NCBI GenBank assembly: GCA_947259415.1
Contig: CAMYMI010000007.1
Location: 35,565 to 99,564 of the forward strand
DNA from: an uncultured Ectothiorhodospiraceae bacterium
GTDB lineage: Bacteria; Pseudomonadota; Gammaproteobacteria; UBA9214
Reading direction: 5' to 3'
DNA: 64,000 nucleotides
Each line of letters begins with the position of its first letter. Within the stretch, counting starts at the first letter, position 1. A model generated the notes under the pieces. It worked only from the letters and a program-made list of their open reading frames with translations. It searched no databases and had not been told where the DNA came from. Both the position numbers and the translations under genes were made by a program. Positions 19,553 through 50,634 of the stretch are shown piece by piece.

Positions 19553-19639
19553 GCCGAGGTGGCGGAATTGGTAGACGCGCTAGCTTCAGGTGCTAGTGGG
19601 GGTAACCCCGTGGAGGTTCAAGTCCTCTCCTCGGCACCA
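19553..19639 (+). tRNA. tRNA-Leu (anticodon CAG)
   Basis: 87 nt, type II tRNA with long variable arm, anticodon loop cuUCAGgu, T-arm GGTTCAAGTCC, encoded CCA; occupies the same position as tRNA-Leu between rnr and purA in Pseudomonas. Confidence 0.9.
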
Positions 19640-19951
19640 TCTCCCCGGGTTCCCGCACAACATCCACCTTTTGCTACCGATATGCACAAAGTTGACAGGG
19701 CAGGCTCGGTCCGCGCGGACCTCTATCTTGCGGGGCCTGCGCTCCTTTCGCTTCGGGATATGCAGGGTCTGGACACACGCCTTCAGACTTGCCTTGATTA
19801 TATCTCCGTCCAGTTCCCGCTGAGGGAGAATCTGTGTTGGCAGCGGGACGAATGGGTGTCGGCATAGACTGCCTCCATGCCGTCGGGCATGGGAATACTC
19901 ACATCACCCTCGGTAGATAAGCGGAACGGATCCCCAGCCCCCGATCCAGCC

Positions 19952-19980
19952 AAAAAAAAGCACCAACCCGCGGGTTGGCG
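19952..19980 (-). terminator. intrinsic terminator for the 20048-20509 gene
   Basis: Stem ccaacc/ggttgg with tetraloop cgcg, followed on the minus strand by TTTTTTTT. Confidence 0.6.
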
Positions 19981-20047
19981 CCTGTGTTCTGGAAAAGCCG
20001 TATGGCCGGGGGCCCTCAGGGACGGCGCCGGTCGGCGTTGTTTGCTG

Positions 20048-20509
20048 TCAGGCCGCGTTCTGCTCTTTATCGCTGATTTCACGGATCAGCGGATAGAGCC
20101 TCTCGGTCTCGTCCAGGATCCTCTCCAGGATCAGATGGAACATCATATCGGTATCGCTGAGGAAGTCTTCATGTGAGGAAATTACCAGTTCAGCCCTCTT
20201 TTCAGTTCTGTTATGCGTAGGACACCAGTGCCTGGTGTATTCTGACGTGATCCGCTTGATCTGCTGCGAACCCGACATGAAATTCCTGACCAGTTTCTGG
20301 ATCTCATGGTCATCGTGCGTCAGCAGCTTGCTGATCAGGTTCTTGTCGACCAGGTCGATGTGCTCCTTGACCTTGTCCATGTAGCGGTGGAAAAGCTCAC
20401 AGCAGGCCCCGGTGTCGCACATGGAGCGATCCTTGAGCAGGTATAACAGGATGTTGGAGAGTTCGGTAATTTCGTGATTCTGGGAATGCAATTCTTCGTA
20501 GGTAATCAT
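20048..20509 (-). CDS. hemerythrin-like (HHE cation-binding) domain protein, low-GC
   Basis: Repeated H...HxxxE spacing (HSQNHEITE, HRYMDKVKEH, HDDHEIQ, SHED) plus a CDTGACCE cysteine cluster; about 50% GC versus about 62% elsewhere; own terminator. Confidence 0.35.
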   Translation of the reverse strand: MITYEELHSQNHEITELSNILLYLLKDRSMCDTGACCELFHRYMDKVKEHIDLVDKNLISKLLTHDDHEIQKLVRNFMSGSQQIKRITSEYTRHWCPTHNRTEKRAELVISSHEDFLSDTDMMFHLILERILDETERLYPLIREISDKEQNAA

Positions 20510-20910
20510 GATGCTCCCTGTTCTAATCTGAGTTAGATTGCGTTTATTTCACTGTATATATATCTGGTTCAGGCTAGGACGAAAAGACGGGCCTGTCAAT
20601 GAATCGAATTATTTAAGCAAATACTAAAATACCAATAATAACACGGCCCTACTACTCGCAGTCAGGAATCTGGGATCCATTATCAAGTCCGTAAACCTCG
20701 TAGAACACCCTATCGCAGTCGCTGTCACGGAAGACATGGTTAAGCATCGGTTATTCCCGCACCAACAGACGCCCATGCAGCGCCTGGCTGCGTAAGCCAG
20801 GAGCGTCCGGTCCGGAAAGACCCCGCGTTACAGCGGATTGCACAGCAGTATAATCAAGATACCCACAGGCTGATCGGGGTGTCAGCTGTTCCTGCTACCG
20901 GAGATTGCCA

Positions 20911-21648
20911 ATGAAGGATCCAGCCGCAGTGTCACGCGGCGAAGCGGACGCGGTCTTTCACGTGCGCGGCCTCACCAAGGTCTACCACATGGGCGAGGTC
21001 GACGTGCATGCACTGCGCGGTGTGGACCTGGACCTGTATGGCGGCGAACTGGTGGTGCTGCTGGGTCCGTCCGGTAGCGGCAAGTCCACCCTGCTCAACA
21101 TTCTCGGCGGGCTGGACACCGCCACCCAGGGCGAGGTGCGCTACTGCGACCACGACCTCACCCATGCCGGTGAGGCCGAGCTCACCGAGTACCGCCGCGA
21201 CCATGTCGGCTTCGTTTTCCAGTTCTATAACCTGATCCCCAGCCTGACCGCGCGCGAGAATGTCGCCGCCGTCACCGAGATCGTTGAGCACCCCATGAAG
21301 CCCGAGGACGCATTGAGGCTGGTGCACCTGGACGACCGCATGGATCACTTTCCCGCCCAGATGTCCGGCGGTGAGCAGCAGCGCGTCGCCATCGCCCGCG
21401 CCATCGCCAAGAACCCGGCGGTGTTGCTGTGTGACGAGCCCACCGGGGCGCTGGACTCGCAGACCGGCGTGGTGGTCCTGGAGGCCCTGGAGCGCGCCAA
21501 CCACGAACTGGGCACCACCACCGTGTTGATCACACACAATGCCGGCATCGCCGACATGGCCGACCGGGTAGTGCACATCACCGACGGACACATCGGTTCG
21601 ATCGAGCACAATTCGGAGCGAAAACCGGCCAGTGAACTTAGTTGGTAG
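20911..21648 (+). CDS. ABC transporter ATP-binding protein (YbbA/MacB-type ATPase)
   Basis: Walker [10 protein letters not shown], signature [14 protein letters not shown], Walker [12 protein letters not shown]; ATG at 20911 preferred over TTG at 20905. Confidence 0.9.
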
Positions 21649-21654
21649 CAACGC

Positions 21655-25298: not shown

Positions 25299-25394
25299 AC
25301 CACACCCTGCTTATAAAACATAAAGTTGACACCGATCAATACATTCCAGCCAGAACCGGCTATCCTTATTTATGTAGAAGAGAGAGGATAAAAT

Positions 25395-25772
25395 ATGCAA
25401 ACACCCTTACAGATCATGTTCCATAACATGGAGCCGTCTGACGCCGTAGAAGCTAATATCAAAGAAAAGGCGGCCAAACTCGAACGATTCAGCGACAAGA
25501 TCACCAGCTGCCGGGTCACGGTAGAAGCACCACACAAACACCATCACAAGGGCAACATCTATCACATTGGCCTGGATATTACCGTGCCTGACGCGGAGAT
25601 CGTGGTTAGCCGCATCCCGCATGATAATCATGCCCATGAGGACATCTATGTGGCGATACGTGACGCCTTCAAGAGTGCCCGTCGCCAGCTGGAGGACTAC
25701 GAGCTGAAGCGCCGCGGGAAAACCAAGCATCACCAGATCTACGAGCCGGTCCCCGGCCAGGTCGCTGAGTAA
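25395..25772 (+). CDS. hpf: ribosome hibernation promoting factor / RaiA family (sigma-54 modulation protein fold)
   Basis: MQ...I.F.....S.A....I.EK..KLERF...I.S..V pattern typical of HPF/YfiA; 125 aa with basic C-terminal tail. Confidence 0.75.
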   Translation: MQTPLQIMFHNMEPSDAVEANIKEKAAKLERFSDKITSCRVTVEAPHKHHHKGNIYHIGLDITVPDAEIVVSRIPHDNHAHEDIYVAIRDAFKSARRQLEDYELKRRGKTKHHQIYEPVPGQVAE

Positions 25773-25826: not shown

Positions 25827-26237
25827 ATGTGGAGGCACTTCCACCACGAGGCCGATATCGGGATTGTTGGCCTGGGTGCTACCCTGGAGCAGGCCTTTGA
25901 GCAAGCCGCCGTTGCCCTGACAGCGGTGATCACCGATCCGGAATCCGTTATCTGCCGCGAGACCGTGGTGCTGGACTGCGAGGCGCCTGATACGGAACTG
26001 CTGCTGGTCGACTGGCTCAATGCACTCGTCTACGAAATGGCCACGCGCCGCATGCTGTTCCGGCGCTTCAACGTTGAACTCAACAACCACAGCCTGCACG
26101 GTACCGCCTGCGGTGAAGCCGTGGATATCCGGCGCCACCAGCCTGCTGCCGAGATCAAGGGCGCCACCTATACGGCACTTAACATCCATGCGGACGCCGG
26201 TGGCATCTGGCATGCTCAATGTGTGGTTGATGTCTAG
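25827..26237 (+). CDS. archease (RtcB activator)
   Basis: [31 protein letters not shown] matches the archease N-terminal signature (HxxHTADIGI...LEEAF). Confidence 0.8.
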
Positions 26238-26439: not shown

Positions 26440-26596
26440 TTTCTCACCCCTCATCCTCGGTAACTGCTCCCTGCGTCGCCTAGAGCGCCTACTGTTGGTG
26501 CTCTACCTCCTGCATGGCCCAGGCCAGCCTCTCGACCGGTTCCCGGTCTCACCTTCTCCCTGCAGTCGTAACCTTCTCCCCTTGAAGGGGAGAAGG
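26440..26596. repeat. dispersed repeat, copy B (plus terminal perfect hairpin ccttctcccc-ttgaa-ggggagaagg)
   Basis: Core at 26455-26512 is near-identical to copy A; a 42-nt segment is inserted relative to copy A; ends with a 10-bp perfect hairpin at 26572-26596. Confidence 0.5.
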
Positions 26597-26753: not shown

Positions 26754-28184
26754 ATGGACACCGCACAACTGACCCGCACCTCGGATTACGAGTGGCGTAT
26801 CGAACCGCAGGGTGCCATGCAGGTACCGGGGATCATATTTGCCAGCGAGGACCTGGTGAGGGCCATGGACGACAAGGTTCGCGAACAGGTCTGCAACGTG
26901 GCCACCCTGCCCGGCATCGTCAAGGCCTCCTACGCCATGCCGGATGCCCACTGGGGCTATGGCTTTCCCATCGGCGGGGTGGCTGCCTTTGATGCCGACC
27001 AGGGCGGAGTCGTTTCCGCCGGGGGTGTCGGTTTCGATATTTCCTGCGGCGTACGCACCCTGCACACCGGCCTGAAACGGCCTGATATCGACGCGGTCAG
27101 GGAACGTCTGGCTGACGCCCTGTTCCATACCATCCCGGCGGGTGTCGGCAGCACCGGGCGCATCCACCTGGACGAGGCCGGCATGGACGCCATGCTGAAC
27201 GGCGGTGCCCGCTGGGCGGTAAAGCGCGGCTGGGGTTACCGCGAAGACCTGGAGCGTGTCGAGGAACACGGCTGCATGGATGGCGCCCGGGCGGAGAACG
27301 TCTCCGAGCGCGCCCGCAAACGCCAGCGTAACGAAATGGGCACCCTGGGTTCCGGCAACCACTACCTCGAGTTGCAGGAGGTCTGCGAGGTCTTTGATCC
27401 CGAGGCGGCCAGCGTCTTCGGTATCAGCCCGGGCGATGTCGTAGTCAGCATCCATTGCGGCTCGCGCGGACTGGGCCATCAGATCGGGACGGAGTTCCTG
27501 AAATCGATGGTGATCAAGGCACAGCAGTACGGCATCACCCTGCCGGACCGCGAACTCGCCTGTGCCCCGATTGACTCGGATACCGGTCAGGCCTATCTCG
27601 GCGCCATGCGCGCGGCCATCAACTGTGCCCTTGCCAACCGCCAGATAATCACCCACCTCACCCGCGAGGTATTCGAGCGGATCATCCCGGCGGCCACGCT
27701 GGAACTGCTCTACGACGTGTCACATAACACCTGCAAGGTGGAGGAGCATGTCATAGACGGCAACCCGCAACGCCTGTATGTCCATCGCAAGGGTGCGACG
27801 CGCGCCTTCGGACCCGGTCACCCCGATATCCCGGAGGACCTGCGCTCCATAGGCCAGCCAGTGCTGATCGGGGGCTCCATGGGGACCGCCTCGCACATCC
27901 TGGCCGGCACCCGACAGGGCGAGGCCCTGTCGTATTCATCGGCCTGTCATGGCGCCGGTCGTGCCATGAGCCGGCGCCGGGCCTACAAGCTCTGGAAGGG
28001 TCGCCAGCTGGTCGACAGCCTGCAGGAGCAAGGCATTCTGATTCGCAGTCCGTCCTCGCGCGGCGTGGCCGAGGAGGCACCGGGAGCCTACAAGGACGTC
28101 GACGCGGTGGTCGATGCCGCCGACGCGGCGGGCCTGGCGCGCAAGGTGGCGAAGCTGAAGCCACTGGCCTGCATCAAGGGCTAG
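26754..28184 (+). CDS. rtcB: RNA-splicing ligase RtcB (3'-phosphate/5'-OH RNA ligase)
   Basis: 476 aa, metal-binding His/Cys (MPDAHWGYGFPIGG, SSACHGAGR), archaeal/eukaryote-like RtcB type. Confidence 0.95.
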   Translation: MDTAQLTRTSDYEWRIEPQGAMQVPGIIFASEDLVRAMDDKVREQVCNVATLPGIVKASYAMPDAHWGYGFPIGGVAAFDADQGGVVSAGGVGFDISCGVRTLHTGLKRPDIDAVRERLADALFHTIPAGVGSTGRIHLDEAGMDAMLNGGARWAVKRGWGYREDLERVEEHGCMDGARAENVSERARKRQRNEMGTLGSGNHYLELQEVCEVFDPEAASVFGISPGDVVVSIHCGSRGLGHQIGTEFLKSMVIKAQQYGITLPDRELACAPIDSDTGQAYLGAMRAAINCALANRQIITHLTREVFERIIPAATLELLYDVSHNTCKVEEHVIDGNPQRLYVHRKGATRAFGPGHPDIPEDLRSIGQPVLIGGSMGTASHILAGTRQGEALSYSSACHGAGRAMSRRRAYKLWKGRQLVDSLQEQGILIRSPSSRGVAEEAPGAYKDVDAVVDAADAAGLARKVAKLKPLACIKG

Positions 28185-28188: not shown

Positions 28189-28989
28189 ATGCCAGCACAG
28201 CGCGGGCAGCTGTATATCGGGACTTCCGGCTGGTCCTATGACCACTGGAAAGGCCGCTACTACCCCAACGACCTGGCCAGCAGCGGGTGGTTGGGCTATT
28301 ACGCCCGGGAGTTCAACAGCGTCGAGATCAACAGCTCCTTCTATCGTCTGCCCACTGCTTCCACGTTGCAGCACTGGCAGGACGCCACGCCCGCCGACTT
28401 TGTATTTACCGCCAAGGCGAGCCGATACATCACACACATGAAGAAACTGAAAGGGTCGCGGCAAACCCTGCCCCCCTTCCTCGAACGAATCAGTCTTCTC
28501 GGCGACAGGCTGGGCCCCATCCTGTTTCAGCTGCCGCCACACTGGCGCTTCAATGCTGAACGCCTCGCCGCTCTGCTTGATGACCTAGGCGGCGCCTGCC
28601 GTTGCGCCTTCGAATTCCGTGACCACAGCTGGTTCAATGAACAGTGTTATGAACTCCTGTCACGGCACGGCGCCGCGCTGTGTCTCTATGAACTGGAGGG
28701 CTTTCTCAGCCCGCAGGAAATGACTGCCGATTTCGTCTATGTGCGTCTGCATGGGCCTGGGGCGGCCTACCAGGGCAGTTATGGCGACAAGGCACTGGTC
28801 GCTTGGGCGGAGGCCTGCACCCGCTGGACGACCAGTGGGCGCGAGGTTTACATTTATTTTGACAACGACGAATACGCGTATGCGGTACAAAATGCCGCAA
28901 GCCTGCAGGCCATGATTCAGGAGCCCTGCCATGCCGGTTCACAATGCCGAGATCGCCGAACTGTTCAATCGACTCGCCGACCTGCTTGA
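28189..28989 (+). CDS. DUF72 (YecE/UPF0759) family protein
   Basis: YIGTSGWSYDHWKGRYYP N-terminus diagnostic of DUF72; starts 4 nt after rtcB; 3' end overlaps polX by 59 nt. Confidence 0.8.
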   Translation: MPAQRGQLYIGTSGWSYDHWKGRYYPNDLASSGWLGYYAREFNSVEINSSFYRLPTASTLQHWQDATPADFVFTAKASRYITHMKKLKGSRQTLPPFLERISLLGDRLGPILFQLPPHWRFNAERLAALLDDLGGACRCAFEFRDHSWFNEQCYELLSRHGAALCLYELEGFLSPQEMTADFVYVRLHGPGAAYQGSYGDKALVAWAEACTRWTTSGREVYIYFDNDEYAYAVQNAASLQAMIQEPCHAGSQCRDRRTVQSTRRPA

Positions 28990-31649: not shown

Positions 31650-31726
31650 CGGGACAGTTGCAACCGGAACGATTTTCGGACGTTTTGAAGACGGTTCAGC
31701 ACACCCTGTATCGAGGAGGCAGACAC

Positions 31727-39733: not shown

Positions 39734-40204
39734 TCACAGCGTATGGCCGTAGTGGCCGCGCTGCGCCTCCTTTAGCAGTTGCTGGAACGACCCGCCATCG
39801 ATACGAACCAGCTCCTCGTGATCGCCGGCCTCGAAAAACACCTCGGGCTCATCCAGCAGGCATTCGTCAAGATAGGTCTCCATCCCCCACGCGGGCCCCG
39901 CGGGTGGAATGGCGCCCACGGCACAGTCAGGAAACAGTTGCACCAATTCTTCCTCCGTCGCCAGGTCCACGCCGTGCCCGAACTGTGCACGCAAGGCAGC
40001 CATGTCGACATGTTCCACCGATGGCAAGACGACCATCAGGTAGCGACCCTCCTCCTTCAGAATGACCGCCTTGGCCAGACGCTGCCCCGGGACATGAGCC
40101 TGTTCCGCCGTCTCCATGCTGCTGCCGGTGTGGGGATGGGGAATCAGGTCGTATTGCGTATCATGCCGGTTGAGAAACTCCTCGAGTGTGACTGAAATCG
40201 TCAT
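39734..40204 (-). CDS. YbaK/ProX-type aminoacyl-tRNA deacylase domain protein
   Basis: About 156 aa from internal start MTISVTLEEFL; YbaK fold motifs (AKAVILK...GAIPP). Confidence 0.7.
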   Translation of the reverse strand: MTISVTLEEFLNRHDTQYDLIPHPHTGSSMETAEQAHVPGQRLAKAVILKEEGRYLMVVLPSVEHVDMAALRAQFGHGVDLATEEELVQLFPDCAVGAIPPAGPAWGMETYLDECLLDEPEVFFEAGDHEELVRIDGGSFQQLLKEAQRGHYGHTL

Positions 40205-40359
40205 GATATGACCTCCTTTTTCAACATATACCGCTAAACTTCTATATGGTAAATATAGACGCTTATTAATTCGTATATACTGATTTATATCAATCCGGCC
40301 AGATCCCTGATGAAAATAAATTTCAACAGGGCTGCAAACTGGAGACTGGTACAGGCTCG

Positions 40360-41449: not shown

Positions 41450-42337
41450 TCAGTCCTCCGGATATGCGACGGCATCCTGAAAGAACGGCAGGTACTCGGT
41501 CCAGTCGTTGACCGGACCGGCATGGAAAAACAGCACAATGCCGTTACGGTCGAGCACGTAGCTTGACGGGAAAATCCTGGCCAGCTCCCGGTCCGGCATC
41601 TTTTCGCCGGCAGCGGTCACCAGGAAGGCATCATCCTCCCCGCTGGCGCCGGAATCTGCCAGGGGCAACCCGGCGAATCCCTGTCGCTGCGCCCACTCAC
41701 GTGCATTGCTGATCGGTTCGCGCAGCTGCAACAGGACCAGGGCGACATCATCACCGGTCTTGTCCAGCAGGATACGGTGCAGGGTGTCCAGGGTGGGCAA
41801 TTCTCGCAGGCATGGTGGGCACCAGCTGCCCCAGAAATGCACCATCACGACCTTGCCGCGCAGGTCGGCAATTGACCGGGACCGTCCGTCCGCACTGGTG
41901 AAGGCGATGTTCGGGAATCGATCACCGACTTGCGTGCCCGTCGCGGCTGTCGCGGCCTGTTCAGCTGTCTTATAGGGCCCCCAGAGCTTGCCCCATGCCT
42001 CGCGCGCGAACTCCAGCGTGTCATCCACGGCATAAGGAATACAGCGCAGGGCCGTGTGCTTCTGGCATTCCTCCACAGCGACCTGGCGGGCCTCCTCGGC
42101 AGTGGCCCTCCCGGATGACCAGGCCCAGGCCCCGCCCGGTGCGATCGCGAATGCGCGGTGCCTGTCGGCCGACAGAAAGACCTGCTGATAGGTCGCACGC
42201 GCGCGTTCACCGACATGCGGGATGGCGTCCGCGTCATCAATTCCGGCAGCGCTGACGGTGTTACCCGGAATGAAAAACAGGCACGGCAGCAGGATAAAAA
42301 AGAGAGCCCGGATTAACGGACTCTCAGGTTTCGCCAT
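41450..42337 (-). CDS. TlpA/ResA-family thiol:disulfide oxidoreductase
   Basis: Thioredoxin-fold WCPPC motif, N-terminal signal/anchor; start at MAKPESP. Confidence 0.8.
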   Translation of the reverse strand: MAKPESPLIRALFFILLPCLFFIPGNTVSAAGIDDADAIPHVGERARATYQQVFLSADRHRAFAIAPGGAWAWSSGRATAEEARQVAVEECQKHTALRCIPYAVDDTLEFAREAWGKLWGPYKTAEQAATAATGTQVGDRFPNIAFTSADGRSRSIADLRGKVVMVHFWGSWCPPCLRELPTLDTLHRILLDKTGDDVALVLLQLREPISNAREWAQRQGFAGLPLADSGASGEDDAFLVTAAGEKMPDRELARIFPSSYVLDRNGIVLFFHAGPVNDWTEYLPFFQDAVAYPED

Positions 42338-42388
42338 GATTGCTTGCCTTGTACCAGGCATTGCTGTTGTTATTCGGTTTATCCCGTG

Positions 42389-42982
42389 CTAATCGATCTC
42401 TTCCCAGCCGGTGATCATCGCCTTGATGTGCGACATCGGCTTGTGGCCGGTAGTGGCAAGATAGATGTGCGCAATGAAGAAGATCAGCATCATGAAGGCG
42501 CCGATGACGTGCGCGGTGGCCACCCACTCCAGGTTCAACCAGCCCAGGCCCCAGCTTTCCCATGACGTATAGAACAGGTACAGCAGCCCGGTGGCCCAGA
42601 TCAACGGGTTGATCATCAGTTTTACAAACAGGTAGGCCAGGCGCTGCAGAGGATTATGCTTGTGCAGCGTGGTCTGACGAAACGGATGCGGCGCATGGCT
42701 GAAGATACCCGTGAGGTAGTAACGCATCATCGCCTCCACCTTGTCCATGGTGGGCACGTACTGCTTCCATTCACCGGTGGTGAAATGCCAGAAGATGGCG
42801 AACACCCACAGGGTGATCAGCGCCCAGGCGGACAGGGTATGCAATTCCACGGCGCGTTCAAAACCCAGGTTGCTGTAGGTACCGTGGATTTCAAAACCCG
42901 TGATCATCATCACGATGATCAGCAGGGCCTGGGTCCAGTGCCAAAAGCGTTCGAAGCGTTTAAAGATGTATATTTTCTCCAT
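42389..42982 (-). CDS. membrane di-haem cytochrome b (FdnI/HyaC-like b-type subunit)
   Basis: 4 TM helices with conserved His pairs (WHWTQ, HTLSAW, HVIGAF, AHIYL); 4 nt downstream of the octaheme gene stop. Confidence 0.75.
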   Translation of the reverse strand: MEKIYIFKRFERFWHWTQALLIIVMMITGFEIHGTYSNLGFERAVELHTLSAWALITLWVFAIFWHFTTGEWKQYVPTMDKVEAMMRYYLTGIFSHAPHPFRQTTLHKHNPLQRLAYLFVKLMINPLIWATGLLYLFYTSWESWGLGWLNLEWVATAHVIGAFMMLIFFIAHIYLATTGHKPMSHIKAMITGWEEID

Positions 42983-42986
42983 TGTC

Positions 42987-44747
42987 TTAATCCTCTCTCT
43001 TGGCAAGGATGACACGGATACCACCGTGGATCAGGACACCAATCAGTGCCAGCAAGGCCACTCCAAAGCCAATCATGTCGAGGAGCGGCATCCTGTCACG
43101 CGCCGGCAGGTAGATGCCATCAATACCGGCCAGGCGGCCACCATCGGTATGACAGCTTTCACACGCCAGTGCATCCTCCTTCGGTGACACCATGTGGGTA
43201 ATCGGCCAGCTCATCTCGGTGGACACGAAGCCGAGCTCCCCGCTGTATTCGGAACCGGCGGTCCGCATACCCACTTCCATGGCCTTGTCCCAGTCGTAGT
43301 TACCCCAGAAGGCGGCATCATCTTTACCTGCGGTGTGCAGGACGGCCAGGGTCTGCAGGCCCTTGTCGTACATCTGTTTGCCACGGAACACGCGCACCGG
43401 CCAGATGCGGGCCTCCGGATCATCCGCGTCACCCTGGAACTCGTTGATCTTGACAACGCTGTCTTCACTGACCTTGTCACCGAACAGGGTGTAATTCACC
43501 TTGCCGTTGAACCACTGGTACTCGGGTACCACGTAACGGTCATAGGTGAAGTTGCCCTTCTTGCTGTCGTAGACGACCTTGCCCGCGCTGTTCTTGAGCT
43601 GGATACGGTGACCCTGCTCATCGAGCTTGCCGGCCGTGGACCAGTCCCAGCTCATCTTGGTCTGCAGCGTGCTGCGTGCATACGCCGGGATGTGGCAGGT
43701 CTGGCAGGCCAGCTTGCGGGTGTGGTCATTGAGCTTTGCCGCCTTGTCGGGATGCGGCGTATTGCCGTGACAGGCCACGCAGGTGGTGGGATTGCGCGGG
43801 TCCTGGCTGCCGGGTACCAGCACGCCCTTTTCGTCCGCCGCGGTCGGACCGTAGCGGCTGCCCGACACCTCGTGTTCATCGGTCACATGACATGTCGAGC
43901 AGGTGAAGTTCAGCCCCTTGCTGTCCATGTGCACATCAAGATAGCGCCCCGGATTCGTCAGCGAGCTGTCGAGGTCGCCGTGCTTGACGGCATCACCGCC
44001 ACCGCCATAGAAATGACAGGTACCGCAGGTCTTGCGGCTGGTCGGTCCGACATTCTGGGCGACCTGCTTCAGGTCGGTGGGCGGCCGGAACTTGCCTGAA
44101 TGCGGCGGCCACTCGATGGTTTCATAGTTGGGATGACCCGACAGCCCCGGAAGCTTCTTGTAGGTCCCGGTGGTGTCGTGGCAGACCAGACAGTCGACAT
44201 TGGCCTCGGCAGTGAAATCGAAGCTGTCATCTGCCCACCCGTAACCGATATGACAGGCCGAACAGAAGGTGTTATTTGACTTGACCGAGGTACAGAAGTT
44301 GTTGATGACGTGCTTCTTGCCCAGTTTCTGACCGGTATCCGGATTGATGTATTCCCAGCTCCAGTGCTTGGTCTTGTGGATCTGCTTGGCGGCTTCGGTG
44401 TGACATTTAAGACAGGCCTTGGTCACTTGCGGTCCTGACTTGAAGTCGATATCGAGTTCCTCGAACTTGGAGTGATCCGCGGTGGACTTGCTTTTCTCTT
44501 CCACCGGTTCCTCGACCGCGACCTGCTTCGGTGCCGGGACACTCTGTATACTTTCGGCTGCGGCCTTTTCGTCCTCACCGGCGACCTTGACCACAGCGCC
44601 TTCAATGGCCTGTTCTATTTCTGCAACCGCACCCTTCTCTGCTTCGGCCAGGGGTGTCGCCGTAGCAATGACCGGACTGGATACTGCCAGGGCCAGTGCG
44701 AATGCAATTCCCAGCACCGGAGCAATCACTCGATCTATGGTAAACAT
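42987..44747 (-). CDS. octaheme c-type cytochrome (OTR/HAO-superfamily-like) with C-terminal TM anchor
   Basis: Eight CxxCH motifs (CLKCH, CSACH, CLVCH, CGTCH, CSTCH, CVACH, CQTCH, CESCH), signal peptide from MFTIDRV, C-terminal hydrophobic helix. Confidence 0.85.
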   Translation of the reverse strand: MFTIDRVIAPVLGIAFALALAVSSPVIATATPLAEAEKGAVAEIEQAIEGAVVKVAGEDEKAAAESIQSVPAPKQVAVEEPVEEKSKSTADHSKFEELDIDFKSGPQVTKACLKCHTEAAKQIHKTKHWSWEYINPDTGQKLGKKHVINNFCTSVKSNNTFCSACHIGYGWADDSFDFTAEANVDCLVCHDTTGTYKKLPGLSGHPNYETIEWPPHSGKFRPPTDLKQVAQNVGPTSRKTCGTCHFYGGGGDAVKHGDLDSSLTNPGRYLDVHMDSKGLNFTCSTCHVTDEHEVSGSRYGPTAADEKGVLVPGSQDPRNPTTCVACHGNTPHPDKAAKLNDHTRKLACQTCHIPAYARSTLQTKMSWDWSTAGKLDEQGHRIQLKNSAGKVVYDSKKGNFTYDRYVVPEYQWFNGKVNYTLFGDKVSEDSVVKINEFQGDADDPEARIWPVRVFRGKQMYDKGLQTLAVLHTAGKDDAAFWGNYDWDKAMEVGMRTAGSEYSGELGFVSTEMSWPITHMVSPKEDALACESCHTDGGRLAGIDGIYLPARDRMPLLDMIGFGVALLALIGVLIHGGIRVILAKRED

Positions 44748-44871
44748 GGCCTCTCTCCGCTGGAATGGATGAGCTAATGCTAAAAAATCGTTTACTACTA
44801 TACAAACAACCGACCGCTGGGCAGCGGCCACTAACGGCCGCTGCATCAGCAGGGTCAGATAAGCAGACCCC

Positions 44872-45417
44872 TCAGCATCCGCTGACTTCCGGTCCACCGG
44901 CGCCACCACCGCCCGGTTTCACCTTGATCAACGGCGGCGCCGGCTGGTTCGGATCGAACTTCAGGAACTCGGCCTGATCCTTGGCGACCTCGTTCATGAC
45001 AGCGGCCACCTTCTTGCCAAACAGCCTGCCCATCAGAGCGGAGTTCATGGTACCGATATAGGTCTTGCCATCATCCTTCTTGTAGACGGTAATGGTGCAC
45101 GGCATCATGATGGACAGGATGCGCGCCTGGTCATCAGCAAGCAGCACTCCCGAGTAGTCGGTACTGCAGGCCTCCACCAGCAGCACGGGCGGTACGTTCC
45201 TGCCCGAATTGGCAACGGCCTTGGACGGATCCCGCAACCCGGAAAGTGTCCATCCGCGGTGGCCCATCCTCTGGATATTGGCCTGAATCCGGGCGGCCGT
45301 CTCCTCGATACCGAACGGGCTCTCATGCTCGACCATCATGAAACTGCCAGCTGTGTTAAACCCGACGATTCCCAGCAGGGCGATGCCTGCGATAAATCCC
45401 ATAACTGCTTTCCACAT
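44872..45417 (-). CDS. DUF302 domain protein with N-terminal TM segment
   Basis: Length and conserved core consistent with DUF302; Gly-rich C-terminal tail. Confidence 0.65.
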   Translation of the reverse strand: MWKAVMGFIAGIALLGIVGFNTAGSFMMVEHESPFGIEETAARIQANIQRMGHRGWTLSGLRDPSKAVANSGRNVPPVLLVEACSTDYSGVLLADDQARILSIMMPCTITVYKKDDGKTYIGTMNSALMGRLFGKKVAAVMNEVAKDQAEFLKFDPNQPAPPLIKVKPGGGGAGGPEVSGC

Positions 45418-45872
45418 GGCGAATCCTCCTGAAAATATCCATCTTAATCCGGGCCACTATGGCCATAACAAGATGTTAGCATATTTTTACATTATTATTT
45501 ACTTATTTTCTTTGATCCAGGACAAGAAAATTGCCATATCCTGGGCTTCTTGCGGGCTCAATGACGATTCCCGATGGCAAGCAGCAGCGTTCACTAACAT
45601 CCCGGGGGGGTGGGTACAGGCCTGCTTCCGGTACCGAGTGACCGGCATAATGACTCCTTACATCCCGGTGGCAGGATTATACCCCGACAGGACGCGACCG
45701 GACTGCCTGGACTGACTAAAAGTACCAATGTTCTCTCATTCATTGGTAAGCTTGCCGCTTGTTCTCATAGCTGTTCTGACGCCCGCACTGAATTCAGGCT
45801 GAACGTGATTACCGTGATTTTCCTCGCGCCCGGTTTTCCACAAACCCGGCTTTTTTTGGGAGGCCATAACTG

Positions 45873-46430
45873 ATGCTTGATGATCTGCATGTCCGGGATT
45901 TCTATATTCCCATCACCGACTATCCCCACGTTTCCGTTTCGGCCTCCATCTGCGACGCCATCCAAATGATGCACAACAGCCTGATCGAGGGCCACAAGTA
46001 CCGCACCATCCTGGTAACCGACGATGACCAGCACCTGCAGGGTTATCTCTCACTGCGTGACCTGACTCGGGCTATCGGACCGAAGTATCTCAGTAAAAAA
46101 GCACCCGATTACAAGGGACACCAGCCCTTCATGGGGATCAGCGAAGATTTCACCGCGTTGTCACTGATCTGGCAGGAAGGCTTCACCCTGAAGATCATGG
46201 AGGAGGCCAGGAAACCCGTATCCGATGTCCTGACGCTGATCAAGAACACGGTCAGCCTCAACGATCCCTTTGCCAAGTGCGCCTACCTGCTTCTGGTTGA
46301 GGACGTCCTGATTCTCCCGGTGGTGGATGATGACAAGGTCATCGGTGTGGTGCGACTGGTCGACATCTTCGAGCGTATCGCCGACACGATTTGCACCCAG
46401 AAAAAATTGCATGAGGCCTCCGGGGACTGA
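45873..46430 (+). CDS. CBS-pair domain protein
   Basis: Two CBS motifs (ILVTDDDQHLQGYLSLRDL and ILPVVDDDKVIGVVRLVDI). Confidence 0.7.
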   Translation: MLDDLHVRDFYIPITDYPHVSVSASICDAIQMMHNSLIEGHKYRTILVTDDDQHLQGYLSLRDLTRAIGPKYLSKKAPDYKGHQPFMGISEDFTALSLIWQEGFTLKIMEEARKPVSDVLTLIKNTVSLNDPFAKCAYLLLVEDVLILPVVDDDKVIGVVRLVDIFERIADTICTQKKLHEASGD

Positions 46431-46449
46431 TGTTCACAGGCAGATTCAG

Positions 46450-47925
46450 ATGAAAACGCCCCTACATTTTCGCAAGCCCGCACTGGAGCTTGATTTAAAG
46501 CGGATCTCCTTCATTGTGTTCGGTTTGGGCGCATTTATGGTCGTTTACCTGATAGACCCGCTGCCCGATGCCATCGACCCCGCAGGCGAGCACTTCCAGC
46601 TCACGCGTGAAGGCAAGGCCGCGATTGCCCTGTTTCTGCTGGCCGGGATCTGGTGGGTCTTCGAGGTGATCCCGATCGGGGTCACCAGCCTGGTCATCGG
46701 CGTGGTACAGGCCTTGTTCTTTATCCGCCCAGCCGAAGTGGCCTTCAAGGATTTCATGGACCCCTCGGTGATGTTCATCTTCGGCTCGCTGGTCATCGGC
46801 ATGGTGTTCACCAAGGTGGGACTGACCAAGCGCCTGGCTTACAAGATGCTGACGGTGGTCGGCGATCGCACCAGTATGATCTACCTGGGCTGCTTCGTCG
46901 TCACCGCCGCGCTGACCCACATCATGGCGCACACGGCGGTTGCCGCCACCATGTTCCCGATCCTGATGGCCATTTATTCCCTCTATGGAGAGGACGATGT
47001 GCCCTCGCGTTTCGGCAAGGGACTGTTCATCGGCATGGCCTTCGTGGCCGGGGCCGGCAGCATGATCACCCTGCTGGGTGCTGCGCGTGGTGCCGTGGCC
47101 ATCGGTTTCTACAATGATATCGTTGGTCAGCAGGTAACGTTTTTCGAATTGACCTATTTCATGTTCCCGATCGGCTGGTTGCTGGTGTTTCTGGTCTGGG
47201 GCCTGATCATGTTGTTGTTCAGGCCGGAAAAGGCGACCATACCGGGACTGAAGGAAAAGGCCAAGCGCCTCTACGAGGAAACCGGGTCCCTCTCCGGCCA
47301 GGAAATCTTCGTGGCAGTTGTCGTCCTCGGGGTGATCATCACCCTGTCACTCAAGTCGTTCATCCCGGCCATGTCCGAGGTCGACAAGACCTCCGTGGTG
47401 CTGGTCTCGACGGTCCTGTTTTTCATGTTCCGCATCCTCTCGCTGCAGGATCTCGAGCAGATCCCGTGGAATATTATCCTGCTGTTCGCCGGCGCCATGA
47501 GCATCGGCTTTTGTCTGTGGGAAACCGGCGCGGCAAAATGGATGGCGGTCAACTGGCTAGTCATGTTCCAGAATTCCAGCTGGTTCGTTTTCGTGATGGG
47601 CATCGCCTTTTTCATCATGCTGATGACCAACTTCATCATGAACGTGGCCGCAATCGCGATCTCCCTGCCGGTGGCACTGGTGATCGCACCCTACCTGGGT
47701 GTGGCGGAGGAAGTCGTACTGTTCGCTGCCCTCGCGGTGGCGGCCTGCCCCTACCTGCTGCTGGTCGGGGCCGCCCCCAACGCCATTGCCTACGACTCGA
47801 AACAGTTCACCGCGGCCCAGTTTTTCAAGGCGGGCATACCGGGTAGCTTGCTGCTGATGGCCGTTGTGGCCTTCGCTGTCGGCATCGTCTGGCCGCTGAT
47901 GGGGATGCCGGTCACTACGCTGTAG
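46450..47925 (+). CDS. DASS/SLC13-family anion:sodium symporter (ArsB/NhaD superfamily)
   Basis: About 490 aa polytopic permease with the internally duplicated architecture of divalent anion:Na+ symporters; start at MKTPLHF. Confidence 0.75.
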   Translation: MKTPLHFRKPALELDLKRISFIVFGLGAFMVVYLIDPLPDAIDPAGEHFQLTREGKAAIALFLLAGIWWVFEVIPIGVTSLVIGVVQALFFIRPAEVAFKDFMDPSVMFIFGSLVIGMVFTKVGLTKRLAYKMLTVVGDRTSMIYLGCFVVTAALTHIMAHTAVAATMFPILMAIYSLYGEDDVPSRFGKGLFIGMAFVAGAGSMITLLGAARGAVAIGFYNDIVGQQVTFFELTYFMFPIGWLLVFLVWGLIMLLFRPEKATIPGLKEKAKRLYEETGSLSGQEIFVAVVVLGVIITLSLKSFIPAMSEVDKTSVVLVSTVLFFMFRILSLQDLEQIPWNIILLFAGAMSIGFCLWETGAAKWMAVNWLVMFQNSSWFVFVMGIAFFIMLMTNFIMNVAAIAISLPVALVIAPYLGVAEEVVLFAALAVAACPYLLLVGAAPNAIAYDSKQFTAAQFFKAGIPGSLLLMAVVAFAVGIVWPLMGMPVTTL

Positions 47926-48364: not shown

Positions 48365-48378
48365 TTGACCTAGGTCAA
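48365..48378. promoter_or_regulatory. FNR/FixK/Dnr-type box (perfect 14-bp palindrome TTGACCTAGGTCAA)
   Basis: TTGA-N6-TCAA / TTGAC-N4-GTCAA, flanked by A-tracts, 150 bp upstream of the membrane cytochrome c gene and 95 bp upstream of the divergent YHS-like gene. Confidence 0.45.
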
Positions 48379-48526
48379 AAAAGCGCTCCTTATTGCAGGT
48401 CCCGCAAGCTGACAGCCGCCGCCCGCGGGCACCTCACCGCTGCGTCCACTAGCTCCTGCAGGTCTGAGACTAATGGCAGCAACATTCTGTTATTATAGCG
48501 GTGAAAACAAGAGGGAGGGGAGATTC

Positions 48527-49294
48527 ATGAAAACAACAAGTTTCGACCACTTCCAGCAGCAGCCAATCGGCTGTCGGGCACTCTACACCATGACCCTCCT
48601 GGTCCTGGGAACAGGCTACCTGTTCGCCATGATCCAGACCTTTCATGTCCACTCTGGCCGTGACGGAAAACCGGGCTTGTCACACACCGACATTCAGATT
48701 GCCTACAGCGGCTCCCAGTCGGATACCCGTCTGGAGGCCGCTCTCAAAGGCTCGATGTCGGGGATGATCAGATCGGAGGATGCCGCGGTGATCAGTGGTT
48801 GGGTCCGCGGTGGTGCCAAGATGGAAAAGTTCCAGCAGCAGGTGGAACCATTGCTACAGGCCCACTGTTCCAGCTGCCATGGCACGGACTCGCAAATGCG
48901 CCTGGCCAACCCGCACATACCGAACCTGGGCACCTATGCTGATGTCATGAAGATGGTCCAGCTCGATACGGGAGCGGACGTCTTCACCATGGTCCGCGTC
49001 TCCCATATCCACCTGTTCGGGATGACCTTCATCTTCTTCATCATGGGCACGATCTTCCTCCATGTACAGATGAAAGCTATCTGGTTGAAGTGCCTCATCC
49101 TCATTACACCGTTTGTTGCCATCATCGTTGACATCATGTCCTGGTATTTGACCAAGTTGTACCAGCCGTTCGCCTGGGTGGTCTATTTCAGCGGAGTCTT
49201 GATGGCGATGGCATTCACCGTCCAGTGGTTTATGTCGATGTACCAGCTGTGGTTTTTCAAGTTGCCCCCGGAGCAAGCGGAAACCGGGGATTAG
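48527..49294 (+). CDS. membrane-anchored monoheme c-type cytochrome (N-terminal TM, haem domain, 3 C-terminal TM)
   Basis: Single CSSCH motif in the context LLQAHCSSCHG; hydrophobic helices before and after. Confidence 0.55.
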   Translation: MKTTSFDHFQQQPIGCRALYTMTLLVLGTGYLFAMIQTFHVHSGRDGKPGLSHTDIQIAYSGSQSDTRLEAALKGSMSGMIRSEDAAVISGWVRGGAKMEKFQQQVEPLLQAHCSSCHGTDSQMRLANPHIPNLGTYADVMKMVQLDTGADVFTMVRVSHIHLFGMTFIFFIMGTIFLHVQMKAIWLKCLILITPFVAIIVDIMSWYLTKLYQPFAWVVYFSGVLMAMAFTVQWFMSMYQLWFFKLPPEQAETGD

Positions 49295-49414
49295 CGTGTG
49301 CCAACCACACCTTTGCAAGGCGGTTGAACCGAGACAGCCACGCTGAAATCTGGTTATCCGAATCAAGTTGGTGTAACGTTAACGCGCATAGAAACAGTCA
49401 TCAGGGAGAATGAA

Positions 49415-49813
49415 ATGCGTTCCAGTGTAGTGATCATCGGACTTGCCATCGCCGCACCATTTCTTGGTACGGGCTGCAGCAAACAGGTCAGTTATGCAGC
49501 CGATATACAACCGTTGCTGAATCAGTACTGTGTACAGTGCCATGACGGCACAGGCGAGGGTTCCCAGAAGAGCGGCTTCATCATGACGAATTATGACAGT
49601 GTAATGAAAGGCACCAAGTTCGGTCCAGTCGTTGTCGCCGGGGACAGCGAATCCAGCACCCTGTACCGGATCATCAGCGGCAAGGTCAGTCCCAAGATCG
49701 ACATGCCGCCGACCGGACCGGAGTCCGTGGCCATCGGACGCGGACATAAAATGACCCCGGATGCCATCACCGCCTTCCAGCAGTGGATCGATCAGGGCGC
49801 ACTCAATAACTAG
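49415..49813 (+). CDS. monoheme cytochrome c lipoprotein
   Basis: Lipobox LGTGC; haem motif LLNQYCVQCHDG paralogous to that of the upstream membrane cytochrome. Confidence 0.7.
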   Translation: MRSSVVIIGLAIAAPFLGTGCSKQVSYAADIQPLLNQYCVQCHDGTGEGSQKSGFIMTNYDSVMKGTKFGPVVVAGDSESSTLYRIISGKVSPKIDMPPTGPESVAIGRGHKMTPDAITAFQQWIDQGALNN

Positions 49814-50024
49814 TTTCGGGATACAGTCAGCAGCACGCTTCCGCCTGAAGTGCGCTGCCGCCGCTGACTGCCAGCCGTCGTGCACCGGGTCACCGTCTCC
49901 GCCGCTACTGGCAAACCCGTTATTGTCGTTATCCAACTGATTCTGCTAATTTTATTCTCGACTAACCCAGCTTGCATGGTATAAGATTGACAATATCCCA
50001 TATATTTTAAGGGCTTAAACCACC

Positions 50025-50534
50025 ATGATCATCGAAGACTGGATACTCGCGACCCTCATTATCATGTTCATCCTGGCATGCGGCTGGCTCTACGTGATCT
50101 GGCAGAATACCCAGCGATCGGAGCGCCAGATCCGCCAGGTCGTCTCGCAGCAGACCCTGATCGGCACCGATATCAGTGCCCGCTCGCTTTGCCATGCCGT
50201 GCATTACCTGCACCCCAGCATGCACGCGGGTGTCGACTTTGTGATCAAGCACGATGACCCCGGTAAGCCGCCCTATATTGCCGAATGGAATTCGACCCAG
50301 GAAAAACCTACAGCCGAGCAACTCAGGGCGGCGCTCACCAAGATCTCGGAACATGGCCTGCTGGAGAATTACGCCATACGTCGCCAGGCTGAATATCCCA
50401 GCATCGGTGACCAGCTCGACGCAGCCTTCAAGGCCCGTCATGGCGACAAGACCGAGCAGATGGAACAGGACAGGAGGATCCAGGAGATCAAGGACAGATA
50501 TCCGAAGACCTCCGGCGAATGCGGCGAGATGTAA
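50025..50534 (+). CDS. hypothetical protein with N-terminal TM anchor
   Basis: ORF only; no recognised motif. Confidence 0.4.
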   Translation: MIIEDWILATLIIMFILACGWLYVIWQNTQRSERQIRQVVSQQTLIGTDISARSLCHAVHYLHPSMHAGVDFVIKHDDPGKPPYIAEWNSTQEKPTAEQLRAALTKISEHGLLENYAIRRQAEYPSIGDQLDAAFKARHGDKTEQMEQDRRIQEIKDRYPKTSGECGEM

Positions 50535-50634
50535 GGATCAAGGACAGCGGCTGAACCAGGCCACCCTGCTCTACCCGTCCCGGGCTGCCGGCCCGGTGTC
50601 CACTCCGGGTCAGACTTTCCCTGCAGGCGATCGA

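Follow-up and report, generated by a model that had tools for sequence, protein, structure and literature searches.

The lxa locus (so named for being activated by low oxygen) of Burkholderia cenocepacia groups 50 genes of host-like GC content, which are not predicted as a genomic island, and an Anr/Fnr-like motif recurs in it at 17 points between genes; persistence under anoxia requires the locus, whose products include universal stress proteins (USPs), a class II ribonucleotide reductase, a metal-dependent RNase and a Zn protease, along with an ABC exporter and cytochromes (Sass et al. 2013, PMC3721108). On the side of RNA repair, gene neighbourhoods of baeRF with HPF and of PrfH with RtcB have been described by Burroughs and Aravind (2019, PMC6514570), and the text of that work, as searched, mentions neither archease nor a baeRF linked to RtcB or LonC. 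The present work deals with a stretch of 64,000 nucleotides (hereafter, the window) of the contig CAMYMI010000007.1, from an uncultured Ectothiorhodospiraceae bacterium, where some 31 kb of DNA stand between tRNA-Leu and purA. A first-pass annotation had regarded this segment as a possible old, fixed island carrying stress, respiration and RNA-repair functions, a content that the family matches reported below confirm. Its age can be maintained, and so can its fixation as far as the available contigs allow, but not the term island in the sense of a mobile element. We give a probability of about 0.6 to the reading that the purA/tRNA-Leu/rnr junction was expanded long ago and vertically inherited as such, the 31 kb having formed from a gene neighbourhood native to the lineage and probably working as an oxygen-regulated survival locus.

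The interval from the 3′ end of tRNA-Leu, which is the single tRNA of the window according to ARAGORN and Rfam, to the stop codon of purA covers positions 19640-50634, or 30,995 bp, in agreement with the size and the landmarks initially proposed. To the left of rnr follow a YiaD/OmpA lipoprotein gene, rlmB, rpsF and rplI, and on the purA side hisZ, hflC, hflK, hflX and onward, the identities of rplI, rpsF, rlmB and hisZ being backed by Pfam. The landmarks of the two boundaries are the following:

16482..17159, minus strand: YiaD-family glycine-zipper/OmpA lipoprotein gene, between rnr and rlmB
17156..19420, minus strand: rnr (RNase R; NCBIfam NF008648, E 2e-300), the left conserved flank
19553..19639, plus strand: tRNA-Leu(CAG) (ARAGORN and Rfam RF00005, 55 bits), whose 3′ end is the left boundary
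19640..19937, no strand: junction DNA without gene and without attachment (att)-like repeat, not common to the close relative L170
50635..51930, minus strand: purA (NCBIfam NF002223, E 4e-201), the right conserved flank

The order of the flanks is thus the one described at first, except for the extra gene between rnr and rlmB, which appears to be a second small indel in an otherwise conserved flank. The Thiohalobacter-like loci L003 and L004 have this YiaD-family gene, which L001 and L002 lack (related loci and contigs are cited here by such numbers). A six-frame translation of the ~300 bp beside the tRNA revealed no gene or integrase remnant, and Rfam searches, of the whole window at the gathering threshold and of the segment at E <=1, detected the tRNA only.

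A scan with the Rnr protein, keeping one genome per species, retrieved 80 related loci, which were searched by tblastn with all the window proteins. In 29 loci of this set purA maps 0.09-5.7 kb upstream of rnr, and the same distance is found in 25 of the 56 loci having at least 7 kb of upstream sequence. Taxa with such near-adjacent genes include Pseudomonas, Vibrio, Photobacterium, Methylococcaceae and Thiohalomonadaceae, and tRNA-Leu(CAG) was found upstream of rnr in all 12 relatives checked. Moreover, the second-closest relative, L002 (Rnr 72%, PurA 82% identity), shows an empty site, where blastn joins its position 6750 to window position 50662 and its position 6801 to window position 19639, and where only 27 bp separate the stop codon of purA from the 3′ end of tRNA-Leu. 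Because purA is near rnr in so many of the informative loci, and because of this empty site, the adjacency of purA, tRNA-Leu and rnr is the ancestral state, relative to which the 31 kb are derived. The record of L002 (JABDRC010000124.1) is entitled 'Halobacteria archaeon', yet it shows the synteny hflX-hflKC-hisZ-purA-tRNA-Leu-rnr-rlmB-rpsF-dnaB with 65-82% identity to the window, and is evidently a mis-binned contig, gammaproteobacterial by its gene order.

The Pseudomonas order, which had been taken as the reference for this junction, does keep purA near rnr, but the gap between them measures itself 2.6-5.7 kb and contains cargo genes. Elsewhere, the gap holds a DinB-type polymerase (L052), a flavohaemoglobin (Hmp) with an Rrf2-family regulator (Veronia), a chemoreceptor (MCP; Metapseudomonas), or a chemoreceptor together with ABC importer genes (P. 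proteolytica). Since the larger gaps of other lineages hold unrelated genes, the purA/tRNA-Leu/rnr junction is a site of repeated gene gain, with a much larger gain in the window. In Pseudomaricurvus alkylphenolicus, an unrelated gammaproteobacterium (L054, positions 5291-7651), a gene for a LonC-type protease, 40% identical to that of the segment, lies 2.4 kb upstream of rnr, with no purA nearby; this may be a coincidence, or a gene of this kind may have reached the junction independently.

The segment itself contains the following genes and features:

20048..20509, minus strand: conserved 153-aa protein, predicted four-helix bundle with invariant Cys and His residues
20905..25298, plus strand: ABC exporter operon (NCBIfam; Pfam FtsX/MacB_PCD)
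20905-21648, plus strand: ATPase of the exporter (NCBIfam)
21655-24018, plus strand: permease of the exporter, duplicated FtsX/MacB type (Pfam FtsX/MacB_PCD)
24093-25298, plus strand: HlyD-type adaptor of the exporter (NCBIfam)
25395..25772, plus strand: ribosome hibernation factor of the HPF/YfiA family (Pfam PF02482, E 3e-16; TIGR00741)
25827..26237, plus strand: archease, RtcB activator family (Pfam PF01951, E 2e-37)
26457..26569, no strand: repeat resembling repetitive extragenic palindromes (REP) or miniature inverted-repeat transposable elements (MITE), in the 516-bp archease-RtcB spacer (26238-26753)
26754..28184, plus strand: RtcB RNA ligase (NCBIfam RtcB-family models, best E 7e-189, all below the model-specific cut-offs)
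28189..28989, plus strand: DUF72 protein (Pfam PF01904, E 2e-72)
28931..30652, plus strand: PolX DNA polymerase/PHP 3′-5′ exonuclease (NCBIfam NF006375, E 2e-157)
31215..31649, plus strand: baeRF family 12/Host_attach protein (baeRF12), aeRF1-like release-factor fold (Pfam PF10116, E 2e-40; PF18856, E 4e-33)
31658..32053, plus strand: DUF6763 protein (Pfam PF20549, E 1e-30)
32242..33630, minus strand: beta-CASP metallo-beta-lactamase RNase, aCPSF1/Cas14-like (Pfam Beta-Casp, RMMBL)
33750..34889, minus strand: bifunctional fructose-1,6-bisphosphate (FBP) aldolase/phosphatase (NCBIfam NF041126, E 2e-166, above cut-off)
34971..36224, minus strand: MgtC/DUF4010 membrane protein (Pfam)
36387..38870, plus strand: LonC-type Lon-like protease (Pfam LonC_helical, AAA_32, LonB_AAA-LID, Lon_C)
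38870..39667, plus strand: universal stress protein (Usp)-like protein (Pfam Usp, E 1e-5)
39734..40205 (open reading frame, ORF, readable to 40447), minus strand: YbaK-like aminoacyl-tRNA editing domain protein (Pfam PF04073, E 2e-25)
40360..41379, plus strand: conserved 339-aa protein, no family match in the library scans
41450..45417, minus strand: respiratory operon (NCBIfam TIGR04315, E 3e-190, NF011582 and NF047696; Pfam DUF302)
41450-42361, minus strand: TlpA-like thiol:disulfide oxidoreductase of this operon
42389-43024, minus strand: cytochrome b of this operon
42987-44909, minus strand: octaheme cytochrome c of the tetrathionate-reductase family, same operon
44872-45417, minus strand: DUF302 protein of this operon (Pfam DUF302)
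45873-46430, plus strand: CBS-pair protein (NCBIfam)
46327-47925 (ORF), plus strand: DASS-family anion:sodium symporter (NCBIfam)
48473..49294, plus strand: membrane protein, assigned in relatives to the Aq_1264_TM family (Pfam PF27139, precomputed for the orthologue of L162)
49415..49813, plus strand: small c-type cytochrome, PSCyt1 (Pfam PF07635; gene calls in L162 and L163)
50025..50534, plus strand: XkdW-domain protein (Pfam PF09636, E 4e-14), the only phage-related gene

Much of this content was recovered in close relatives. PurA homologues with 96, 94 and 92% identity were traced to the contigs L161, L162 and L163, whose collinearity with the window runs from amiB across purA and into the segment as far as 40.46 kb, at 84-92% nucleotide identity. 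From purA, whose neighbour in the three contigs is the XkdW gene (in the window, this gene ends 100 bp from the right boundary), L162 and L163 show the order XkdW, small cytochrome c, membrane protein, DASS, CBS, DUF302, octaheme cytochrome, cytochrome b, TlpA-like protein and 40360 gene, the right ~10 kb of the segment being attached to purA in relatives with 92-96% PurA identity. The respiratory operon is collinear in L081, L162 and L163, where the CBS/DASS pair (45873..47925) keeps 85-91% amino acid identity, and the 40360 gene is present in L081, L084, L085, L162 and L163. In L162 and L163, segment genes show 83-85% amino acid identity vs 88-91% for flank genes, the pattern expected of co-inherited accessory genes. 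The middle of the segment is represented by L081 and L082 (LonC 88-89%), found via LonC, which cover 31.9-48.9 kb in the same gene order, their sole difference being a gap of 960 bp (35349-36308) in the MgtC gene, and L082 keeps the pair of FBP aldolase/phosphatase and beta-CASP RNase (94% and 89% amino acid identity). On the left, the sample that gave L161 also yielded a short contig, L170, which matches 19.9-22.3 kb with 89% nucleotide identity, including the exporter ATPase and part of the permease. The contigs with this left 2.3 kb and with the middle part are metagenomic and unlinked. In L081 and L082 only the 3′ part of the MgtC/DUF4010 gene is left, likely as a pseudogene in these populations, and the gene is intact in the window. 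At positions 2320-2788 of L170, the homology to the window ends just past the terminator of the 20048-type gene, and an ORF recognised by eye as Hsp20-like from its N-terminal sequence follows.

The nearest complete genome, CP070821.1 (L001; Rnr 80%), offers a different arrangement. There, the tRNA is followed by a 65%-identical homologue of the 20048-20509 protein, which is the sole segment gene found beside the tRNA, and then by the ccm cytochrome-maturation operon and gamma-glutamyltranspeptidase, not by purA. Its RtcB, 80% identical like its Rnr, is encoded 1.2 Mb away from rnr (L164), within the series NadA-archease-RtcB-DUF72-YbaK-like-phosphoribosyltransferase (PRTase)-DUF6763-ribonucleotide reductase-FtsH-like-DUF748-XkdW, where the XkdW homologue near the RtcB cluster is 47% identical; a sister contig, L176, adds LonC 10 kb further. 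Because CP070821.1 holds these genes in a cluster, with an RtcB as diverged as rnr (80% each), several genes of the segment were already clustered in the common ancestor, and are native to the lineage. Both the place of the cluster and its additional genes differ between genomes.

Composition and the search for mobility functions lead in the same direction. GC at third codon positions (GC3) is 0.733 in the segment vs 0.737 in the flanks, the codon adaptation index relative to the flanks 0.667 vs 0.674, and the tetranucleotide correlation to the flank profile 0.85-0.95, vs 0.90-0.96 for the flanks themselves, which bears out the host-like GC noted at first sight. The first gene (20048-20509), singled out initially as lower in GC, has indeed a GC of 0.506, but its GC3 (0.734) is host-like, and the low value is due to its amino acid composition. 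No integrase, transposase or other mobility family was detected in NCBIfam, Pfam and PHROG scans of the genes (ORFs of at least 100 aa taken as genes), and the 25 nt of the tRNA 3′ end occur in a single copy in the 64 kb, even with 3 mismatches allowed; the two absences that the first-pass annotation had reported, of integrase and of a direct repeat of the tRNA end, are therefore both upheld. When the segment and its surroundings were searched for long repeats, direct or inverted, and for boundary repeats, no match rose above chance level. There were no phage structural, replication or lysis genes, the PHROG matches being those of XkdW (three PHROGs) and DUF72 (one), of unknown function. A mobile island is not supported by these data, and the composition of the block looks native.

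The second part of our reading concerns regulation. The motif searched was the FNR/CRP-type palindrome TTGAT-N4-ATCAA with <=2 mismatches, which occurs 36 times in the window vs 16.4 +/- 4.0 in shuffles. Between genes, the 4.4 kb of intergenic DNA in the segment contain 8 boxes and the 6.0 kb of the flanks 1, whereas 2000 shuffles of the segment's intergenic DNA gave 1.5 +/- 1.3 boxes, and never as many as 8. The boxes at the promoters of the segment are:

25326..25339, no strand: FNR/CRP-type box TTGACACCGATCAA, upstream of HPF, 1 mismatch
31171..31184, no strand: FNR-type box CTGATAATCATCAT, upstream of baeRF12, 2 mismatches
36320..36333, no strand: FNR-type box TTGACGCAAATCAG, upstream of LonC, 2 mismatches
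40280..40293, no strand: FNR-type box CTGATTTATATCAA, in the divergent YbaK-like/40360 spacer, 1 mismatch
45512..45525, no strand: FNR-type box TTGATCCAGGACAA, in the divergent DUF302-operon/CBS spacer, 2 mismatches
48365..48378, no strand: FNR-type box TTGACCTAGGTCAA, upstream of 48473-49294, 2 mismatches
49353-49366, no strand: FNR-type box upstream of the small cytochrome gene

Relatives show boxes at equivalent places. Similar ones precede baeRF12 in L083, L085, L098, L099 and L166, and LonC in L081, L082 and L083; the divergent YbaK-like/40360 spacer, which holds two boxes in the window, contains perfect TTGAT-N4-ATCAA palindromes in L081, L083, L085 and L164; the TTGATCCAGGACAA box is identical in L081, with related boxes in L162; and boxes with 1 mismatch lie upstream of the 48473-type gene in L081 and L162. 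The clusters of L164 and L176 carry 4-5 boxes each with <=1 mismatch, where ~0.6 would be expected by chance in such a length by our own calculation. Since FNR/CRP-type boxes stand at the majority of promoters from HPF through to the cytochrome gene, most of the block is probably co-induced by an FNR/Anr-like oxygen sensor.

When LonC was used as query, 80 related metagenome loci were obtained, which revealed a recurrent gene neighbourhood. A compact (HPF-)archease-RtcB-baeRF12-LonC-Usp(-YbaK-like-40360) array is found in L083, L085, L086 and L098-L100, and the same compact array beside the rimP-nusA operon and tRNA-Met in L166-L169; L175 has these genes in another order, plus DUF72, and they are also shuffled in L176. 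The baeRF12 gene lies directly beside RtcB in L083, L085, L098, L099 and L166-L169, whereas in the window DUF72 and PolX intervene, the latter being absent from the compact arrays of L083, L085, L099 and L166. With respect to the compact array, the window shows DUF6763, beta-CASP RNase, FBP aldolase/phosphatase and MgtC between baeRF12 and LonC, as if a conserved core had grown through the accretion of further genes. The HPF gene adjoins archease-RtcB in L083 as well, DUF72 also follows RtcB in L164, L175 and L176, DUF6763 is near LonC or RtcB in L111, L113, L119-L121, L136, L164 and L176, and the Usp-like gene comes after LonC in most loci, down to ~50% LonC identity. The exporter, for its part, has a homologous pair (72%/59%) in L111, 8 kb from LonC.

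This array of archease, RtcB, baeRF12 (with GGQ), LonC and Usp, often with HPF and a YbaK-like deacylase, might tentatively be regarded as a so far undescribed rescue/repair system of the translation apparatus, a functional analogue of PrfH-RtcB2. In such a system, the archaeal-type release-factor-like protein baeRF12 would free or block damaged ribosomes, RtcB and archease would religate cleaved tRNA or rRNA, LonC would clear the stalled products and HPF would park ribosomes in anoxia. The FNR-type boxes at its promoters in part of the lineage suggest a control of the array by oxygen. If this proposal is true, the 31-kb block would be an enlarged version of the system, fused with genes of anaerobic respiration and DNA repair. 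The GGQ tripeptide of baeRF12 occupies residues 56-58, in the loop SFDSGGQGRHAMG, and is found in 8 of 12 aligned homologues, not family-wide: it is kept in L098-L100 and L166-L169, replaced by GVGG in L083, L085 and L086, and absent from the distant L138. A catalytic release or peptidyl-tRNA hydrolase activity of baeRF12 is uncertain, because the tripeptide is not kept in all homologues.

Several genes of the segment deserve a separate comment. The 20048-20509 protein has no match in Pfam (E up to 10) or NCBIfam, and belongs to a widespread family of 403 homologues of ~149 aa, a few of them with PF01814, where C31, C36, C37 and H50 are invariant and C96, H12 and H65 near-invariant. Its AlphaFold model is a helical bundle (predicted local distance difference test, pLDDT, 81), and a fold search against the PDB gave no significant match, with the hemerythrin DcrH at E 0.36; a hemerythrin-like nature is a lead only, and the predicted four-helix bundle suggests a metal- or redox-binding protein. 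The contexts of 20048-type genes are varied, for example beside batD in L171-L174. The archease gene has 69% nucleotide identity to that of L164, and an ORF on the minus strand (25794-26270) was rejected as spurious, the archease on the opposite strand (25827-26237) being the real gene. The repeat in the archease-RtcB spacer, which is unusually long, is hairpin-rich and 90% identical to 113 nt of L083 (2656-2768), there downstream of RtcB, which makes it better conserved than the adjoining genes (72-78%). The window has a partial copy between rlmB and rpsF (15619-15672), and L163 another in an hflC-hisZ spacer (8113-8162); the repeat has no Rfam match and is probably a dispersed element of the REP/MITE kind.

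Homologues of RtcB with 74-91% identity are abundant in gammaproteobacterial metagenome-assembled genomes, and relatives match Pfam PF01139. In L165, the region upstream of RtcB (1-240) contains a perfect inverted repeat (GGGGACATTCTTCATTTTC...GAAAATGAAGAATGTCCCC), and downstream (1662 onward) genes for GGDEF-EAL, HD-GYP and pilMNOPQ follow. The best NCBIfam matches of the beta-CASP RNase are archaeal aCPSF1 and the Cas14 model of type VII CRISPR, both below cut-off. Bifunctional FBP aldolase/phosphatases occur typically in archaea and in thermophilic bacteria of deep-branching lineages. The YbaK-like orthologue has 156 aa in L164 and L176. The 48473-49294 protein gave no significant direct match in Pfam, and a second spurious ORF (49379-49936, minus strand) was discarded in favour of the real gene for cytochrome c (49415-49813, plus strand).

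Several observations weigh against an old, native and oxygen-regulated expansion, and part of them would suit a tRNA-targeting island or prophage-derived element, acquired whole at tRNA-Leu, later deprived of integrase and att sites, and fully ameliorated. The 3′ end of a tRNA is a classic site of island insertion, and the block starts exactly at that of tRNA-Leu; the compact RtcB-baeRF12-LonC array of L166 likewise adjoins a tRNA (tRNA-Met); a gene with the phage-type domain XkdW stands at the far end; and the closest database match of RtcB (L165, 91% at the amino acid and 88% at the nucleotide level) shares this gene alone, in an unrelated context beside an inverted repeat, which suggests a gene-sized horizontal exchange or recombination of RtcB. 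Among the recovered contigs of close relatives, moreover, none extends over 22.3-31.9 kb, and the homology of L170 ends at window position 19937, with the Hsp20-like ORF next and not tRNA-Leu; since this ORF replaces the tRNA, the junction seems to be still variable within the genus. As to regulation, the boxes are pattern matches only, most of those in the window with 2 mismatches, and in a raw count of all 5-N4-5 palindromes, where GC-rich hairpins reach equally high scores, the FNR motif shares no better than third place, so that the case for it comes from the composition-corrected shuffles and from the recurrence in relatives. Also, L166 and L175 have no box at <=1 mismatch, the left 5 kb of the segment (20048-25298) have none, and the 64-kb window contains no gene for an FNR-family regulator. 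An island acquired whole is nevertheless rather improbable: integrase, transposase and direct repeats are missing and the composition is indistinguishable from that of the flanks, the orthologues of CP070821.1 are as diverged as rnr and map to another locus, the modules are found separately and in other orders elsewhere, and L001 also has a 20048-type gene beside the tRNA, but with the ccm operon next.

A single intrachromosomal relocation of the native cluster (by translocation, or by an inversion with its breakpoint at the tRNA), or a cluster ancestral at this place that moved away in L001, is an unlikely explanation with nonetheless a real chance of being right, and one that needs no accretion in steps. 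On the 2.62-Mb chromosome CP070821.1, the positions of the RtcB cluster (0.67-0.69 Mb) and of rnr (1.88 Mb) roughly mirror each other (2.62 - 1.88 = 0.74 Mb), as might be expected after an origin-symmetric inversion; L001 keeps the 20048-type gene at the tRNA and has the rest elsewhere, and the two genomes agree in the order archease-RtcB-DUF72...DUF6763...XkdW. However, L164 has no baeRF12, LonC, PolX, octaheme operon or ABC exporter within 10 kb, and has ribonucleotide reductase, FtsH-like protease and DUF748 instead, and because of this different gene content one move cannot explain all the differences. The first-pass annotation had named beforehand what would speak for an ancestral arrangement, namely close relatives with the same content at this locus, and such content is found in pieces at the genus level but not at L002. 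That the 31 kb are ancestral, with the tight purA-tRNA-rnr arrangement elsewhere resulting from deletions, would agree with the parts of the block whose order is kept among the recovered relatives of genus level, and is very improbable in view of the tight or near adjacency in many distant families (Pseudomonas, Vibrio, Methylococcaceae, Thiohalomonadaceae and L002), of the different cargo held by larger gaps in each lineage, and of the absence of distant lineages with genes of the 31 kb in the gap, the 40%-identical LonC of L054 being the one partial exception. An anti-phage defence island, where RtcB would repair RNA after toxin or nuclease attack, with the Lon-like protease and the beta-CASP protein as effectors, seems scarcely credible. 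Pairs of RtcB and release factor have been interpreted as counter-conflict systems (PMC6514570), and the beta-CASP protein matches Cas14 and Avs1a models below cut-off. Yet 9 of the 10 segment proteins tested with PADLOC had no match and the tenth, the beta-CASP RNase, a weak partial one to LmuA (E 7e-5); the block contains no restriction, CRISPR, toxin-antitoxin or abortive-infection genes, and its genes co-occur with those of respiration and metabolism and with FNR-type boxes, and are common to close relatives rather than variable.

Following the reading of an old native expansion, the junction of this lineage would have come to hold the group's own neighbourhood, tolerant of rearrangement and made of HPF, archease-RtcB-DUF72, baeRF12, DUF6763, LonC-Usp and the YbaK-like gene, which would then have been enlarged with PolX, the beta-CASP RNase, the FBP aldolase/phosphatase, MgtC, the ABC exporter, the octaheme operon, CBS/DASS and the small cytochromes. 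Upon exhaustion of oxygen, an FNR/Anr-like regulator would co-induce the block. Translation would be shut down and protected, through hibernation by HPF and blocking of the A site by baeRF12, and the repair or removal of damaged RNA, DNA and protein would fall to RtcB/archease, the beta-CASP RNase, PolX, LonC and the YbaK-like deacylase. The octaheme cytochrome with cytochrome b, the thiol:disulfide oxidoreductase and the small cytochromes would sustain an alternative respiration, whereas carbon would be supplied by gluconeogenesis through the FBP aldolase/phosphatase and transport provided by the ABC exporter and DASS, for an overall role in the survival of anoxia or growth arrest. The data show the insertion with respect to the ancestral order, a constant gene order wherever contigs of relatives were recovered, the native composition, the lack of mobility genes, the recurrence of the neighbourhood at other places, and the enrichment and recurrence of the boxes. 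In this scheme, we infer the regulator, the inducing signal, the physiological role and the mode of assembly, be it in steps or by a single relocation.

As a case of genomic islands or genome plasticity the finding is ordinary, and its added value lies in the RtcB-baeRF12-LonC-Usp neighbourhood with FNR-type boxes. A tRNA-adjacent block without integrase can be old native DNA, and not a decayed mobile element. In an order that varies, RtcB, archease, DUF72, baeRF12, DUF6763, LonC-Usp, the YbaK-like gene and HPF travel as one set through many Gammaproteobacteria of the sulfur cycle that are uncultured, and the set carries FNR-type boxes here and in several relatives. The locus offers testable hypotheses for the role of bacterial RtcB/archease outside the RtcR system, for that of the baeRF12/Host_attach family, and for the survival of anoxic periods in sediments by these organisms.

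Among known systems, the block resembles tRNA-linked genomic islands in its start at 19640, directly 3′ of tRNA-Leu(CAG), in its accessory genes and in the intact empty site of a related genome. It differs from them in having no integrase, no distal repeat of the tRNA end and no deviation in composition, and in being common to close relatives instead of variably present among them, with genes native to the lineage. With the RtcR-RtcBA operon of Enterobacteria it shares the RtcB ligase, but the segment has neither RtcA cyclase nor RtcR, nor a convincing sigma-54 promoter, the corresponding pattern giving 26 matches vs 24.6 expected, that is, without enrichment, and none upstream of RtcB. Its protease has the domains (LonC_helical, AAA_32, LonB AAA-LID and Lon_C) of LonC from Meiothermus taiwanensis, an ATP-independent Lon-like protease (PMC3391209, PMC13069640), a match by family only, and the Usp-like partner found here is not part of the described enzyme. 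As in the baeRF-1/HPF neighbourhoods described in PMC6514570, and reported for several baeRF families, a baeRF-family gene shares here its neighbourhood with a ribosome hibernation factor, and, as in the PrfH-RtcB2 pair of the same paper, the genes for an RtcB ligase and a release-factor-like protein lie near each other, an arrangement suggestive of a coupling between RNA repair and ribosome rescue. Unlike in that pair, the partner is the archaeo-eukaryotic-type baeRF family 12 and not the bacterial-type PrfH, archease is present, and LonC-Usp follows.

The most extensive likeness is with the lxa locus. The two differ in bacterial class, in the RtcB/archease, baeRF12, LonC, PolX and octaheme tetrathionate reductase found here and not listed for lxa, and in the number of USPs (six in lxa vs one Usp-like gene here), and the regulation and phenotype are experimental for lxa and deduced from sequence here. 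Both are large chromosomal blocks (50 kb for lxa, 31 kb here) of host-like composition, without mobility genes, partly syntenic among relatives and with an FNR/Anr-like palindrome at many internal promoters. The gene categories common to the two are USPs, metal-dependent RNases, ABC exporters with their adaptors, cytochromes of the b and c types and anion transporters, and the stress and dormancy genes of the window include, besides the cytochromes b and c, HPF, the Usp-like protein, the octaheme cytochrome of the tetrathionate-reductase family and the CBS protein. An FtsH-like protease and a ribonucleotide reductase are found in the related clusters L164 and L176, and Hsp20, a hallmark of lxa, has its counterpart in the ORF beside L170, Hsp20-like as judged by eye. 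In organisation and gene categories, the lxa locus of B. cenocepacia is the closest described system to the block between tRNA-Leu and purA.

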